Assembly (NCBI GenBank): GCA_947589005.1
Contig: CANPZO010000002.1
Coordinates: forward strand, 7,713-71,712
Source: an uncultured Clostridia bacterium
GTDB taxonomy: Bacteria > Bacillota > Clostridia > UMGS1883
DNA length: 64,000 nt
Direction of reading: 5' to 3'
Shown: piece by piece, positions 35,690-40,205 of the stretch
How positions within the stretch are numbered: the first letter of the stretch is position 1
Layout of the letters: every line of letters begins with the position of its first letter
Translations under genes and position numbers: made by a program
The notes under the pieces: generated by a model
The model's input: the letters and a program-made list of their open reading frames with translations, nothing else
What the model was told of the DNA's origin: nothing
Database searches by the model: none

Positions 35690-36528
35690 GAAAATTTATA
35701 TCAATCATACTCACCTTAACACTTATGCTTTTCTGCGCGTCCTGCGCCGGAGCCGAGGACAACGCCGCTCCCGCTCCGGCGGGCAATGAAGCCGTCAGCG
35801 AGGCCCCCATAGCGGATGCCGACGTGCTAACTCTCCAAATCGGCAACCCCATGATGACCGTGAACGGAACCCAGCAGGAAATAGACCCCGGCGCGGACAC
35901 GGCACCCATTGTTCAGAACGGCCGGACGCTCCTGCCCATCCGGGCTATAATTGAGGCCCTTGGCGGAACCGTGGACTGGGATCAGGACACGCAGACCGTC
36001 ACCATTACCATGCCAAAGGCGGCGCAGACCCAGCCCGCCGCCGGCAAAACCCTCGTGGTCTACTACTCCGCCACCAACACCACCGAAGGTGTGGCCGAAA
36101 AGATAGCCGCCTACACCGGCGCGGATATTTTCGAGATCACTCCGTCCGACCCCTACACCGACGACGACCTTGACTGGACGGACAATAACAGCCGCGTTGT
36201 GGCCGAGCATGACGACCCCGACGGCCGCCATGTGGAGCTTGAGACTACCGACGTTCCCGACTGGACAAGCTACGACACCGTATATATCGGCGCGCCCATA
36301 TGGTGGGGCGAGTTCTCGTGGGTAATCGACGATTTTGTAAAGAACAACGATTTCACGGGTAAAACAGTTATACCTTTCTGCACCTCAATGTCCTCCGGTT
36401 TGGGCGACAGCGGGCGGCACGTCGCTGAAATGACGTCCTCCGGCAACTGGTTGGACGGCAAACGCTTTGGCACACGGGCAAGCGAAGCAGAGGTACAGGA
36501 ATGGATAGACAGCTTGGAATTGAATTAA
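35687..36528 (+). CDS. Secreted lipoprotein: Cu-amine-oxidase-N domain plus extracellular flavodoxin-like domain
   Basis: ATGA start/stop overlap with the upstream gene. Signal '[20 protein letters not shown]'. Cu_amine_oxidN1 '[18 protein letters not shown]...[18 protein letters not shown]'. Flavodoxin_4-like '[15 protein letters not shown]...[14 protein letters not shown]'. Confidence 0.75.
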
Positions 36529-36542
36529 AGGAGGAAATTATC

Positions 36543-37391
36543 ATGGAATTTGTTACATTAAATAACGGAATTAAAATGCCAATGGAGGGCTTCGGCGTGT
36601 TTCAGGTGCCGGACCCTGCGGTGTGCGAACAGGCGGTGCTTGACGCCATCGCCAGCGGCTATCGCCTCATCGACACTGCGGCGGCCTATATGAACGAGGA
36701 GTCCGTGGGCGCGGCCGTTAAAAAGTGCGGCGTTCCCAGGAGCGAGCTGTTCATCACCACAAAGCTGTGGGTGCAGGATTCAAGCTATGAAGGGGCGAAA
36801 AAGGCCATCGAGACCTCCCTTGAAAAGCTGGACATGGACTACATCGACCTTTATCTCCTGCACCAGCCCCTGGGCGACTACTACGGGGCGTGGCGGGCCA
36901 TGGAGGAGGCGTATAAAGCCGGCAAGCTCAAGGCTATCGGCGTGTGTAACTTCTATCCCCATGTTCTCGCCGACTTCTGCGAGACCGTGGATGTTATCCC
37001 CGCGGTAAATCAGGTGGAGCTTCACCCCTTTTTCCAGCAGGAAAACGCCCTCAAGGTCATGAAGGACTACGGCGTTGTTCCCGAGGCATGGGGCCCCTTT
37101 GCCGAGGGCAAGCACGGAATTTTCACTCACCCCGTTTTGACCTCAATCGGCGAAAAATACGGCAAGACCGCCGCTCAGGTCGCCCTCCGCTGGAACGTGG
37201 ACCGGGGCGTTGTGGTAATCCCCAAGTCGGTACACAAAGCGCGCATGGAGCAGAACATGGATATATGGGATTTCAGTCTCAGCCCCGAGGACATGGAAGC
37301 CGTTGCCGCCCTCGATCTGGGCCACAGCGAGATAGTCAATCATTTTGACCCGAATTTTGTTAAGATGCTGCACGGAATGAAGGTTCATTAA
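36543..37391 (+). CDS. Aldo/keto reductase
   Basis: RBS AAGGAGG. AKR motifs '[11 protein letters not shown]', 'LFITTKLW', '[13 protein letters not shown]'. Confidence 0.85.
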
Positions 37392-37651
37392 ACGCTGGGG
37401 CGGCGGCTTTGTCCGCCGCCTTAAACCTTTAGAATTGGAATAAAAAATTGTCGCTGAAACACATTTTGTCATTTCTCCAAAACTTCGTAAACGCCTTCGG
37501 CGTTGTTTGTCGCTTTTACTTAAATTCAATGTTCTTTTGCGCGGCAAAAGAACCAAAAGCGCCGGGGCCCTCGCCATGGCCCCGGACCCCTCAAGGCGCT
37601 TAAGGGGCCTGCGGGCCCCTTAAGAATCCCCAAAACTTGTTTGCCGCCGCA

Positions 37652-37725
37652 ACTGCTTAAACCAAAAGGTTTCTTTGAACCTTTTGGTTTGGCGGCATAA
37701 ACTTTTTTGCACTTCACTTTTTTGA
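37652..37725 (+). promoter_or_regulatory. Conserved upstream element copy 3, with a perfect 14-bp inverted duplication of the aacc-tttt-ggtt hairpin and extended -10 'tgataaaat'
   Basis: 'aaaccaaaaggtttctttgaaaccttttggtttggcggcataaacttttttgcacttcac'. Confidence 0.6.
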
Positions 37726-37767
37726 AAAAAAGTGATAAAATTAAATTAATCTAAGGAGGCAGAAGCT

Positions 37768-38250
37768 ATGGCGTCGTTGATAATATATTATTCTCAGGCG
37801 CGTGGGAATACGAGGCGCATCGCGGAAATGATACGTCAGGCCACGAACTATGACATCGCCGAAATAGAAACCGCGTTTCCGTATAAGGGAACTTATGAGG
37901 AAATCGTCGATCAGGGAAAGGCCGAGGTCAGCGAGGGCTATATGCCGGAGCTGAGGCCCTTGGGTAAAATACTTTCCGGCTATGACACCGTCATAATCGG
38001 CACGCCGACATGGTGGTACACCATGGCCCCCGCCGTCCGCGCCTTTCTCACGGAAAACGATTTCAGCGGAAAAACCGTTGTTCCGTTTCACACTCACGGC
38101 GGCTGGCCCGGACACACCCTTGACGACATGAAGGCGCTGTGCAAGGGGGCGAGCTTTAAAAACGAGATGTCCGTGCAGTTTGATTTTGAGGGCGGGAGCA
38201 CTCTCATAACGCCCGAGGATAAGCTGCGGGATTGGATAAAGAAGCTTTAA
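37768..38250 (+). CDS. Flavodoxin-family protein (cytoplasmic)
   Basis: RBS AAGGAGG. 'LIIYYSQARGNTRRIAE' and 'VIIGTPTWWYTMAP'. 160 aa. Confidence 0.8.
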   Translation: MASLIIYYSQARGNTRRIAEMIRQATNYDIAEIETAFPYKGTYEEIVDQGKAEVSEGYMPELRPLGKILSGYDTVIIGTPTWWYTMAPAVRAFLTENDFSGKTVVPFHTHGGWPGHTLDDMKALCKGASFKNEMSVQFDFEGGSTLITPEDKLRDWIKKL

Positions 38251-38259
38251 TAAGTTTAA

Positions 38260-38430
38260 GGCAATACCGCACAAAGACCGCTTTAAAGCTTTGCACCCGT
38301 CTTGCTTGCATCTTTTCCGACGTTTCTTACGAAAACTCCTTGAAATACGACAGGTATCCTATGGTCGTTTTCGTAATTCCGTCAAAAAATCTGCGGCGCA
38401 ATACGGGCACAATCTCTGTGCGGTATTGCC
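38260..38430. repeat. REP-like palindromic element (arms GGCAATACCGCACA / TGTGCGGTATTGCC) split by an about 140-bp insert; related hairpin at 63779..63811
   Basis: Arms at 38260-38273 and 38417-38430. The inner region carries a degenerate second copy. Confidence 0.55.
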
Positions 38431-38465
38431 TTAATATAACCACTATAACTACTGGAGGCGAGAAA

Positions 38466-40205
38466 ATGAAAAATCTCAAAAAAATCACGGCCTTTGCCCT
38501 GAGCCTTGCCGTACTCTGTCTCGGCTTCGGGCTGCTTGTCCGCACGCAAAAGACCACCACGGCCTACGCCGCGGACACCGGCTACGAGACCACTGACCCT
38601 GACGCTCCCGAGGTGCTGTTCACCTCGGAGATAACCTCCGAGTCGCTGCTCCGTATATATAAAGCCCTTGGCTTTGACGCGGAGGGCGAGGTGGCCGTCA
38701 AGATGTCCACCGGCGAGCCGCCAAACAGCAACTATCTCCGTCCCGAGCTGATAAAAGACCTTATCCAGGAGGTGGACGGCACCATCGTCGAGTGCAACAC
38801 CGCCTACGGCGGACGGCGCTCCAGCACCGCCATGCACCGGCAGGTGATAGAGGACCACGGCTTTCTCGACGTGGCAAAGGCCGTTGACATAATGGACGAA
38901 GACGGGGACATCACCATTCCCGTTCCCACGCCTGCCACAGGCGCGCGTTCGACCATAACCACCAACCGCGTGGGCGCCCATCTTACGAACTACGACAGCC
39001 TTATCTCGCTGGCCCACTTCAAGGGCCACGCCATGGCGGGATACGGCGGAGCTATCAAAAATATGTCAATCGGCATCGGCTCGGTGGCGGGCAAGTGCCT
39101 TATCCACACGGGCGGCAGATCCAGTACAAGTCCCTGGGGCGGCAACCAGAACGCCTTTCTTGAATCCATGGGCGACGCCACAAGCAGCGTGGTAAATCAG
39201 TTTGACGGAAAAGTCGTTTATATCAACGTGATGAACCGGTTGTCAATAGACTGCGACTGCGACGGCAACCCCTCCGAGCCGGATATGCACGACATCGGCA
39301 TACTGGCCTCCTATGACCCGGTGGCGCTGGATCAGGCTTGCCTTGACCTGATTTCTCAGGCCGACGGCAACACGAGATTTTTAAACCGTGTCAACGGTCA
39401 AAACGGCTTCCACACCCTTGAACACGCAGAGGAGATAGGTCTCGGCAGCCGAAGCTACCGCATACGGGATATCGACGCCGAGCCGGTGGCCGTCACCATG
39501 AGCTATGACAACGGACAGCTTACGGTTTCGGGCCTTGACGGCGAGGCGGCCCTCATCAGAGTTTCATATTCCGACGGCGCTTTGGCGGGAGTCGATATTT
39601 CCTCCGTTACCAACGGGACGCGGAACATGGAGGCCGAGGGCGGCGACAGGCTTTTCCTCTGGAACAGTCTCATGTCCATGCAGCCCCTGTGCCCGTCGGT
39701 GACCGTGCCCGACGGCGGGCCCAAGACCCTCGTGGTCTACTACTCCGCCACCAACACTACCGAGGGAGTGGCCGAAAAGATAGCCGCCTACACCGGCGCG
39801 GATATTTTCGAGATCACTCCGTCCGACCCCTACACCGACGACGACCTTGACTGGACGGACAATAACAGCCGCGTTGTGGCCGAGCATGACGACCCCGACG
39901 GCCGCCATGTGGAGCTTGAGACTACCGACGTTCCCGACTGGACAAGCTACGACACCGTATATATCGGCGCGCCCATATGGTGGGGCGAGTTCTCGTGGGT
40001 AATCGACGATTTTGTAAAGAACAACGATTTCACGGGTAAAACAGTTATACCTTTCTGCACCTCAATGTCCTCCGGTTTGGGCGACAGCGGGCGGCACGTC
40101 GCTGAAATGACGTCCTCCGGCAACTGGTTGGACGGCAAACGCTTTGGCACACGGGCAAGCGAAGCAGAGGTACAGGAATGGATAGACAGCTTGGGGCTTA
40201 ATTAA
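38466..40205 (+). CDS. Secreted or anchored protein: DUF362 domain plus recurrent YS.G.L/F.W..PL module plus C-terminal extracellular flavodoxin-like domain
   Basis: RBS GGAGGCGAG. Anchor 'ITAFALSLAVLCLGFGLLV'. DUF362 paralog of 26919 ('IVECNTAYGGRRS...DCDCDGNPSEPDMHDIG'). The C-terminal 145 aa are nearly identical to the 35687 flavodoxin domain. Confidence 0.75.
   Translation: MKNLKKITAFALSLAVLCLGFGLLVRTQKTTTAYAADTGYETTDPDAPEVLFTSEITSESLLRIYKALGFDAEGEVAVKMSTGEPPNSNYLRPELIKDLIQEVDGTIVECNTAYGGRRSSTAMHRQVIEDHGFLDVAKAVDIMDEDGDITIPVPTPATGARSTITTNRVGAHLTNYDSLISLAHFKGHAMAGYGGAIKNMSIGIGSVAGKCLIHTGGRSSTSPWGGNQNAFLESMGDATSSVVNQFDGKVVYINVMNRLSIDCDCDGNPSEPDMHDIGILASYDPVALDQACLDLISQADGNTRFLNRVNGQNGFHTLEHAEEIGLGSRSYRIRDIDAEPVAVTMSYDNGQLTVSGLDGEAALIRVSYSDGALAGVDISSVTNGTRNMEAEGGDRLFLWNSLMSMQPLCPSVTVPDGGPKTLVVYYSATNTTEGVAEKIAAYTGADIFEITPSDPYTDDDLDWTDNNSRVVAEHDDPDGRHVELETTDVPDWTSYDTVYIGAPIWWGEFSWVIDDFVKNNDFTGKTVIPFCTSMSSGLGDSGRHVAEMTSSGNWLDGKRFGTRASEAEVQEWIDSLGLN
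39770..40197 (+). repeat. Near-identical (about 99%) duplication of 36090..36520 (flavodoxin-like domain coding sequence)
   Basis: Direct comparison. The antisense ORFs 36270..36473 and 39947..40150 translate identically. Confidence 0.85.

Follow-up and report, generated by a model that had tools for sequence, protein, structure and literature searches.

Probable recent gene conversion confined to a flavodoxin domain common to two differently built genes of an uncultured Clostridia bacterium

Introduction

Ectopic gene conversion and the concerted evolution of paralogs are well described in bacteria, with tufA/tufB and the rRNA operons as familiar examples, and have been the subject of surveys (PMC6053082, PMC8022953); a more recent example of gene conversion comes from M. 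tuberculosis (PMC12046097). Domains may also be moved by recombination within or between genes, as for the target-recognition domains of H. pylori hsdS (PMC3077401). The classic cases of the tufA/tufB type concern whole-gene duplicates, whereas in the locus described here a single domain is common to two otherwise unrelated architectures, one carrying CuAO_N and the other DUF362, and since homology is confined to that domain the homogenised tract is bounded by the start of the domain and the stop codon. The locus lies in a 64,000-nucleotide stretch of contig CANPZO010000002.1, from an uncultured Clostridia bacterium, which in its entirety is referred to below as the window.

Results

The genes and their neighbours

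Gene A (35686..36528, + strand) translates into a protein of 280 aa with a signal-like N-terminus, followed by Cu_amine_oxidN1 (PF07833, aa 69-112) and Flavodoxin_4 (PF12682, aa 121-276), and an exact copy of this protein is present in the independent assembly L001. A previous reading of the sequence alone had begun the gene at 35687; the ATG is at 35686, a minor correction. Gene B (38466..40205, + strand; 579 aa) has a signal- or anchor-like N-terminus, DUF362 (PF04015, aa 76-294), a linker and Flavodoxin_4 (PF12682, aa 420-575). These Pfam assignments agree with the CuAO_N-flavodoxin and DUF362-flavodoxin make-up proposed in that reading, and the extracellular location that it gave to the domain is suggested by the signal-like N-termini, the CuAO_N domain and the SLH or dockerin domains of relatives. 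Exact-protein look-ups of the gene B product and of the identical P0250 gave no record, and the copy B sequences of other strains were reached via the cluster members P0251 and P0252.

Both flavodoxin domains match the Flavodoxin_4 profile at E 1e-40 (138.7 and 136.5 bits, the gathering cut-off being 24; positions 1-154 of the 155 in the profile), and they have full-length PDB matches in 3KLB, 4ICI and 4J8P (E 1e-28 to 1e-32). The latter, matched by sequence, are 'putative flavoproteins' from structural genomics; they are, however, stand-alone proteins of ~160 aa, whereas here the domain forms the C-terminus of proteins that begin with signal-like sequences. The DUF362 matches exceed the gathering score (151 and 161 bits), and a sequence search gave no solved structure for DUF362, a domain that shares its clan with the N-terminal domain of LarA, a nickel-pincer enzyme (PMC11770544).

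Two genes separate A from B, both on the + strand. An aldo-keto reductase (AKR) gene (36543..37391) starts 15 nt past the stop codon of gene A and is outside the repeat. Because LarB and LarE are nearby, its product was considered as an NphT-like nickel-pincer AKR (PMC13524815); this was rejected, as its best PDB relatives are canonical AKRs of the 2,5-diketogluconate-reductase type (4mhb, 2e-108), and an NphT entry was absent among the 60 best PDB matches listed. The second is a small flavodoxin gene (37768..38250; Pfam, BLAST) without a signal sequence, which has 36% amino acid identity to the repeat domain, is uninvolved in the repeat, and is missing from the sister lineage discussed below. 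In its own right, the putatively secreted module of DUF362, flavodoxin and ArsP-type permease, which is uncharacterised and adjoins LarB and LarE here, is to our judgement more intriguing than the conversion. An Rfam search of the window returned a tRNA only, and the promoter-like repeats match no known RNA family.

An older CuAO_N-DUF362 paralog (26919..28352, + strand), which has no flavodoxin domain, serves as a yardstick of divergence (dS ~1). Its DUF362 part is 78% identical to that of gene B at the nucleotide level over 704 nt (dS ~1.0), and the CuAO_N parts of the paralogs are 76% identical (dS ~1.15), in keeping with the earlier remark that everything beyond the flavodoxin domains is far more diverged.

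Extent and identity of the repeat

The repeat was found in three ways, by a repeat search, an ungapped identity profile and self-BLAST, the last aligning 36045-36517 with 39722-40194 (473 nt, 99.15% identity, 4 mismatches without gaps, offset 3677). On inspection of the individual bases, the homology comprises 483 nt (36046..36528 in copy A and 39723..40205 in copy B, both + strand), starting at 36046 with the codon that opens the flavodoxin domain (K-T-L-V-V-Y-Y-S) and ending with the common stop codon at 36528, with 8 mismatches that are all near the edges. Four are at the 5' end (36048, 36081, 36087, 36090), each a synonymous third position, and four at the 3' end (36518, 36519, 36520, 36522). 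Between them is a core of 427 nt (36091..36517 and 39768..40194, + strand) that is 100% identical, which gives exact form to the initial description of a ~430-bp stretch ~99% identical between the two genes. Upstream and downstream of the homology the profile falls to ~25-30% matches, that is, to no similarity.

The identity of the core is not due to chance. Given the 91.1% identity of the same pair of domains in the sister lineage, a perfect run of 427 nt has a probability of ~5e-18, and 47 or more concordant sites in a row, with 8 of 57 polymorphic sites discordant, have a permutation probability of 2.5e-7. Synonymous differences are absent from the core (0 of 91; 91.3 sites, dS = 0), as opposed to a dS of 0.46 in the 15 unconverted codons at the 5' end.

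This homogenisation of synonymous sites also bears on explanations through purifying selection, convergence or a diversity-generating retroelement (DGR) with template and variable repeats. The repeat does occupy the 3' end of genes whose products are probably surface-exposed, as DGR variable repeats do; however, selection on protein cannot make all 91 synonymous sites identical, no reverse transcriptase is among the Pfam matches of the ORFs scanned across the window, and the mismatches between the copies are not adenine-specific (A/G, C/T and T/A at synonymous sites). Typical DGR repeats are, furthermore, shorter than this one by a factor of 3-4. A mobile element was likewise considered and rejected, as were selection and a DGR, and we regard selection, convergence or a DGR as exceedingly improbable.

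Other assemblies and the question of an artefact

All available assemblies derive from short-read metagenomes at ~3-6x coverage (2.7-6.2x), and at such depth a single consensus might in principle be threaded through two positions whose sequences are truly diverged, or of which only one is real. Moreover, the SNPs that distinguish near-identical strains concentrate in the repeat (3/4, 5/7 and 3/5 of the differences), as would be expected if a few paralog-specific variants had been collapsed differently in each assembly. Several observations oppose this. With 9% divergence, two copies have no k-mers above 50 nt in common and would be kept apart by an assembler, as happened in the sister lineage (L002, CANQRB010000007.1), where the longest identical run between the domains is 50 nt. 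Each window copy retains edge variants that match its correct ortholog: positions 36048 and 36518-36520 have copy-specific states that are fixed in the sister A copies (L002, L083, L084) and B copies (L002, L086). An independent assembly, L001 (ENA ERZ27059539), spans both copies and has the same homogenised state, and in sample ERZ27249211 the copies are on separate contigs (L081, L085), yet the core is again identical. Contig breaks in other assemblies (at window positions 37056-37065, 38919, ~39212 and 36829) do not fall at the repeat and are neutral with regard to graph tangling. When JGI metagenome contigs were searched for a degenerate 41-nt pattern taken from the core, 0 matches were obtained, and this source added no strains. 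Collapsing could hide at most a handful of differences, and could not account for a shift from 91% to >99% identity, although the merging of a few residual paralog variants by assemblers could slightly overstate the exact identity. Since the same state recurs in two further assemblies of the strain group, and since gene order is collinear with that of the sister, whose copies are too unlike to be confused, an artefact is unlikely, and we give it little credence. The caution originally attached to the repeat as an assembly hazard was fair as a remark; an actual artefact is what the spanning assembly and the sister argue against.

Both genes predate the homogenisation

The sister lineage is collinear with the window at ~94.5% nucleotide identity, and has both genes at the same positions. 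Its A and B domains are 91.1% identical (42-46 mismatches, dS 0.39). Differences between the two window copies amount to 8 (core 0), compared with 35 between window A and sister A, 28 between window B and sister B, and 46 between the two sister copies; the window paralogs are closer to each other than either is to its own ortholog.

A recent duplication or insertion, by which a flavodoxin module was newly fused to one of the genes with no overwriting of an existing homolog, would also give near-identical domains. Domain gain and loss do occur in this family: Flavodoxin_4 accompanies DUF362 and CuAO_N in many architectures (N-terminal, internal, C-terminal and tandem), and the sister ortholog of the 26919-28352 gene has an extra flavodoxin domain, its N-terminus being 51% and its DUF362 part 92% identical to the window gene, which lends separate support to the earlier suggestion of domain shuffling in the island. 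However, the sister clade has both fusion genes at the same positions, and the order of CuAO_N-flavodoxin followed by AKR extends to L016 and L017, which are more distant. The homology also has old edges (dS 0.46), orthologous to those of the sister, whereas a newly inserted domain would show identity all the way to an abrupt boundary. A new fusion is, on this evidence, very improbable. Recent gene conversion, as the sequence-only reading had proposed, fits the presence of both genes in the sister with domains 9% diverged, the edges that match orthologs and the absence of synonymous differences in the core.

Donor and direction

If dS in the flanks is taken to predict dS in the domain of the same gene, the direction of transfer may be approached by comparing each window gene with its sister ortholog. 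For gene A, the domain has a dS of 0.29 against 0.08 in its own flanks (25 synonymous differences where 8.3 are expected, P = 2e-6), so that divergence from the ortholog is 3.5 times higher in the domain than in the flanks. Gene B shows no such excess (0.21 in the domain against 0.16 in the flank; 19 versus 17, P = 0.36). In a neighbour-joining tree both window copies group with the sister B copy. Because the excess of dS is limited to the domain of copy A, the DUF362-flavodoxin gene B is the probable donor and the CuAO_N-flavodoxin gene A the probable acceptor.

The sites that are fixed between the sister A and B copies are less decisive. At the 25 such sites in the core, the window has 14 B-type and 11 A-type states, interleaved, a pattern that fits a B ortholog with substitutions on the sister-B stem and several two-way events equally well. 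The interleaving leaves the scenario of a single B-to-A event unproven, and the flank-calibrated comparison of dS is the more informative of the two on direction.

Recurrence in other lineages

A second, independent tract is present in another metagenome-assembled genome (L003), where two different genes have an identical run of 246 nt in common within their flavodoxin domains; the remainder of the domain is 88-94% identical to its orthologs and only 84% to its paralog. In the tree, flavodoxin-domain pairs from within one genome also cluster together in the L016/L017, L006, L038, L070 and L007 lineages. Taken together, the L003 tract and this clustering by genome indicate that domain-limited concerted evolution is recurrent among these flavodoxin domains.

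It is pertinent whether the window reflects a small concerted-evolution system, in which conversion is repeated, two-way and still under way, rather than one B-to-A event. Apart from the interleaved states and the recurrence elsewhere, the strains themselves point this way: ERZ27249211 has 36400C, 36426C and 36433G in both copies, where the window has T, T and A in both, and copy A of L082 has 5 differences in the core and, elsewhere in 9.2 kb, none except in a small indel-rich patch (38354-38363). The clustering of variants in the repeat has P values of 7e-4 to 4e-6. However, substitutions on the sister-B stem, together with the merging of residual paralog variants by assemblers, can give the same patterns. 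We consider repeated conversion a tentative reading with something less than an even chance of being correct. The word 'ongoing' in the initial description is thus plausible in light of strain variants that occur in both copies and cluster in the repeat, although the collapsing of short-read bubbles could mimic them.

Discussion

Intrachromosomal (ectopic) gene conversion is, with considerable confidence, the explanation that we favor for the repeat. Both fusion genes are old, and their domains were ~9% diverged (dS ~0.4) before the proposed non-reciprocal homologous recombination, presumably by RecA-type machinery and perhaps in a single event. The two flavodoxin-coding segments between which it would have taken place are direct repeats, with 3.7 kb from one to the other, and each closes the 3' end of a differently built gene. 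The transfer would be placed in the window lineage after its split from the ~95% identical sister, either while the sampled strains were diversifying or earlier. It would have overwritten at least ~415 and at most 427 nt, leaving older, diverged homology of 45 nt at the 5' edge and 11 nt at the 3' edge; the tract could reach no further because homology stops at the start of the domain and at the stop codon. A transfer from B to A would have altered about five residues of the domain of A, and any selective benefit of this is conjectural.

It is tempting to view the homogenisation as a lasting feature, possibly under selection, of a widespread extracytoplasmic redox module (DUF362, Flavodoxin_4 and ArsP-type permease), although we think this unlikely. 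The corollary that flavodoxin modules on different proteins are kept identical by docking to one shared partner is similarly doubtful, and we hold just as little confidence in the notion that conversion among modules spreads variation between strains and so explains the SNP hot spot in the repeat. Concerted evolution of the flavodoxin modules in this putatively secreted DUF362 system is seen in several lineages, which hints at a shared interaction partner.

On a practical level, phylogenies or ortholog calls made from the flavodoxin repeat domain will mislead, and variant calls within the repeat are not assignable to one copy. An exact direct repeat of 427 bp at a distance of 3.7 kb is, furthermore, a substrate for deletion of the segment with the AKR, flavodoxin and DUF362, as well as a risk for short-read assembly and binning. 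For an uncultured anaerobe of the gut, the locus offers a clean and datable instance of domain-limited conversion between differently built genes, in which the unconverted sister serves as control.

In comparison with known systems, the case is a real, well-documented and ordinary one of bacterial gene conversion, by a mechanism of known kind (ectopic homologous recombination between paralogs). As in other conversions of bacterial paralogs, the paralogs are closer than the orthologs, the tract, homogenised at synonymous sites too, lies inside older homology, the positions of the retained copies are syntenic and the pattern is recurrent across lineages. With H. pylori hsdS it has in common that a domain-sized segment is moved by homologous recombination via short flanking similarity; there, however, the outcome is new specificity, and hence diversification, whereas here two copies of the same domain have been homogenised.

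A near-identical domain in two different genes

Gene A (35686-36528, forward strand) encodes a 280-aa protein with a signal-like N-terminus, a Cu_amine_oxidN1 domain and a Flavodoxin_4 domain, while gene B (38466-40205, forward strand) encodes a 579-aa protein in which the N-terminus, a charged start followed by a hydrophobic stretch of 19 residues, precedes DUF362, a linker of about 125 aa and again Flavodoxin_4. An aldo-keto reductase (AKR) gene begins 14 nt past gene A, and a terminator-like hairpin lies 3' of gene B. The sequence-only reading had pointed to a near-identical stretch of about 430 bp in the two genes, and this is borne out: 36045-36517 and 39722-40194 agree at 99.15% over 473 nt (4 mismatches, no gaps), as detected concordantly by a repeat search, an ungapped identity profile (offset 3677) and self-BLAST. 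Read base by base, the homology starts at codon 1 of the flavodoxin domain (36046/39723; AAA/AAG ACC CTC GTG..., K-T-L-V-V-Y-Y-S) and ends with the common stop codon (36528/40205); beyond these limits the identity profile is at the random level. Copies A and B of the domain differ at 8 positions over these 483 nt: the first 45 nt have four changes, all synonymous and at third codon positions (36048, 36081, 36087 and 36090), and the last 11 nt have another four (36518, 36519, 36520 and 36522; ...SLELN versus ...SLGLN before the stop). The core, 36091-36517 and 39768-40194, is identical throughout its 427 nt.

The repeated domain matches Flavodoxin_4 over its full length and has the structural-genomics homologs 3KLB, 4ICI and 4J8P. 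Two more flavodoxin genes lie in the window, at 37768-38250 and 14341-14904, and their proteins share only 29-36% identity with it. The remainder of the genes is much more diverged, as had also been claimed: the CuAO_N parts are 76% identical (dS, the synonymous divergence, about 1.15), and the DUF362 paralogs, 26919-28352 and gene B, 78% over 704 nt (dS about 1.0).

Related loci and the integrity of the assembly

Searches for related sequences assign the window to an uncultured Clostridia lineage of rabbit-gut ('Lapin') metagenomes. Among near-identical strains, an independent assembly, L001 (ENA, ERZ27059539, NODE_848), is 99.95% identical across window 31573-42529 and likewise carries the repeat; the same group supplies copy A from L081 and L082 and copy B from L085. 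A sister lineage at about 94-96% nucleotide identity includes L002 (CANQRB010000007.1), which has both genes together on a 125-kb contig, as well as L083 and L084 (copy A) and L086 (copy B). Gene order in L002 follows that of the window (LarB, permease, LysR, Fe-ADH, hydrolase, gene A, AKR, gene B), but the pair of flavodoxin domains there agrees at only 91.1% (BLAST counts 42 mismatches in 472 nt, and the full 483 nt contain 46; dS 0.39). For the flanks, dS between window and L002 ranges from 0.08 in the hydrolase and the N-terminal part of gene A to 0.16 in Fe-ADH and the N-terminal part of gene B.

An assembly artefact, in which the repeat would be a product of the assembler, is unlikely as the main explanation. 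The longest identical run between copies 9% apart is 50 nt, so such copies assemble separately, as is seen in L002; furthermore, each window copy retains its own edge variants, orthologous to those of the sister lineage, and the gene order is collinear with L002. One independent assembly reads through both copies, and another has them on separate contigs; contig ends of other assemblies fall outside the repeat. In sample ERZ27249211 a contig break lies inside the AKR gene at 37056-37065 (the end of L081 and start of L085, with a 10-nt overlap) and not at the 427-nt repeat.

Evidence for gene conversion

Since the dS of 0.39 between the L002 domains exceeds the 0.08-0.16 of orthologous flanks, copies A and B diverged before the lineages separated, and the identity of the copies in the window is therefore derived. 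The unconverted edge, the first 15 codons of the homology, still has a dS of 0.46, and at 36048 and 36518-36520 each window copy has the state fixed in the same-gene copies of the sister lineage. In the core all 91 synonymous sites are identical, so protein-level selection cannot account for the identity; the comparison of dS between domain pairs that had been proposed as a check sets 0 of 91 synonymous differences against diverged pairs at the edge and in L002. An alignment of the four sequences contains 57 polymorphic sites, 8 of them discordant, and a concordant run of at least 47 sites has P = 2.5e-7; at 91.1% identity a perfect 427-nt run is expected with a probability of 5e-18.

The tract spans nearly all of the common homology, ending 45 nt and 11 nt inside its limits. 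Given how homologous recombination works in general, such limits would be expected if heteroduplex is barred from the non-homologous N-terminal parts and 3' flanks. Taken from sequence comparison, the diverged sister pair, the ortholog-matching edges and the homogenised synonymous sites sustain the earlier proposal, and it is very likely that the identical tract arose by gene conversion between genes A and B.

Probable direction of transfer

Gene B (DUF362) is the probable donor, with gene A as the acceptor, given that the dS excess is limited to copy A and that both window copies group with the L002 copy B in a neighbour-joining tree. Copy A has 25 synonymous differences from its sister ortholog where 8.3 are predicted from its own flanks (P = 2e-6), compared with 19 for copy B where 17 are predicted (P = 0.36). 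About 5 residues were altered in A, e.g. DWD to DWT, VVPF to VIPF and SGK to SGR. At the 25 core sites fixed between sister A and sister B, the window core matches sister B at 14 and sister A at 11, the two types being interleaved block by block. The 11 A-type sites may reflect substitutions on the stem of sister B, as 11 per 427 nt is about half of the 5% divergence; multiple events in both directions would leave an indistinguishable pattern.

Variation among near-identical strains

Differences between the window and the near-identical strains are almost confined to the repeat. In L081 (copy A), 3 of 4 differences over 7.4 kb fall within it (binomial P 7e-4); L082 (copy A) has 5 core substitutions and, elsewhere in 9.2 kb, just an indel-rich patch at 38354-38363 (P 4e-6); and in L085 (copy B) the repeat holds 3 of 5 substitutions over 11.1 kb (P 5e-4). 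L081 and L085, which come from one sample, share the same three variants (36400C, 36426C and 36433G, with their copy-B equivalents), so that copies A and B are identical in that sample too, yet unlike the window. It is possible that conversion went on homogenising the two copies once the strains had diverged, and perhaps did so in both directions; it is also possible that each short-read assembler merged a few remaining differences between the paralogs in its own way.

Outside the repeat, the sole variable spot in these strains, besides a substitution at 35528 in L081, is a hairpin at 38346-38372, upstream of gene B (stem ACGAC/GTCGT within ACGAAAAC/GTTTTCGT). Its loop reads AGGTATCCTATG in the window and sister L083 and AGTATTCCTGC in L001, L082 and L085, and the two forms are not reverse complements of one another.

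Other features of the island

The small cytoplasmic-type flavodoxin gene 37768-38250 and its promoter-like region (37431-38443 in all) are missing in L002, which has 74 nt instead, and present in sister L083, so that the stretch between genes A and B is polymorphic for their presence. A 75-nt promoter-like element occurs upstream of this gene and of the Fe-ADH gene (37675-37749 and 33064-33138; 79% identical), with a palindrome AACCAAAAGGTT/AACCTTTTGGTT and a TTGCAC...TA(C/A)AAT pair, and a 92-nt inverted repeat (24028-24119 and 34422-34513; 80% complementary) lies upstream of response-regulator and hydrolase genes. Neither has an Rfam match, and they look like common operator/promoter modules of a single regulon. 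A second repeat in the window, 3117-3681 versus 9244-9809 (566 nt, 93%), includes a duplicated 122-aa ORF (3314-3682 and 9442-9810), and a 61-nt piece of it is found again at 41353-41411. Genes for ParB_N and DUF6017 at the window start (1165-2885) suggest a mobile-element-like neighbourhood. The island is rich in putative secreted hydrolases and oxidoreductases bearing the CuAO_N module; a very large ORF at 17834-21691 has CMD, CuAO_N, cupin and carboxylesterase domains, with several esterase/hydrolase genes around it (15924-23981). An NphT-like identity of the AKR was considered and rejected: its best PDB relatives are canonical AKRs, with no NphT entry among the 60 best matches listed.

DUF362 has no known function and no solved structure related by sequence. 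A conserved gene string at 26919-31751 comprises a CuAO_N-DUF362 gene, two family-less small ORFs (28428-28781 and 28786-29094), LarE (TIGR00268, 347 bits), LarB (NF033503, 287 bits), both equivalog matches, and an ArsP_1-family permease; the ORFs scanned across the window included neither LarA nor LarC. As DUF362 belongs to one Pfam clan with the LarA N-terminal domain, and residues 305-353 of the 26919 protein weakly match Lar_N, DUF362 may be a new user of a cofactor of the nickel-pincer type, and further users of that cofactor are under active search (PMC13524815). Across the 79 loci L002-L080, ArsP_1 permease homologs adjoin DUF362 genes in 63, whereas LarE or LarB occurs in only 7, and DUF362, the permease and a putative secreted flavodoxin look like a conserved, undescribed module. 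The association of DUF362 with Lar genes and the permease is a candidate for a more novel lead than the A/B conversion, and lies outside that finding. The L002 ortholog of 26919-28352, P0148, has 656 aa and an internal Flavodoxin_4, unlike the window protein; the DUF362 parts are 92% identical and the N-terminal CuAO_N parts only 51%, which marks a further, distinct event of mosaicism or domain loss in this island.

Recurrence and comparison with known systems

Flavodoxin_4 is encoded in 60 of the 79 loci with gene B relatives, as DUF362-Fld, Fld-DUF362, CuAO_N-Fld, CuAO_N-Fld-DUF362 and tandem Fld-Fld (Fld, Flavodoxin_4), and in the protein database it is also found with SLH and dockerin domains. 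Within a locus, domain pairs are often far closer than expected (89% in L003, 94% in L014, 88.5% in L016, 86% in L017), and in the domain tree pairs from one genome or clade group together in the window/L002, L016/L017, L003, L006, L038, L070 and L007 lineages. The L014 pair is a tandem within one CuAO_N protein (19082-20056; 94% DNA identity), either a recent internal duplication or a conversion. L003, a rabbit-gut MAG, holds a second, independent and clear recent conversion tract: its domains at 1397-1870 and 2663-3136, from a DUF362-Fld and a CuAO_N-Fld-DUF362 gene, share a 246-nt identical run, while over the remaining 3' part of the domain the latter gene is 88-94% identical to L005 and L012 orthologs and only 84% to its own paralog. 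Domain-limited concerted evolution is thus recurrent in this flavodoxin-domain family.

For bacterial paralogs, ectopic gene conversion and concerted evolution are both well documented (PMC6053082, PMC8022953, PMC12046097), and domain-sized recombinational exchange has been reported in H. pylori hsdS (PMC3077401). Genes A and B display every testable defining feature of ectopic gene conversion save an unambiguous assignment of donor and acceptor. The case belongs to an already known kind of process, and its one particular feature is that the homology consists of a single domain common to two otherwise unrelated architectures.
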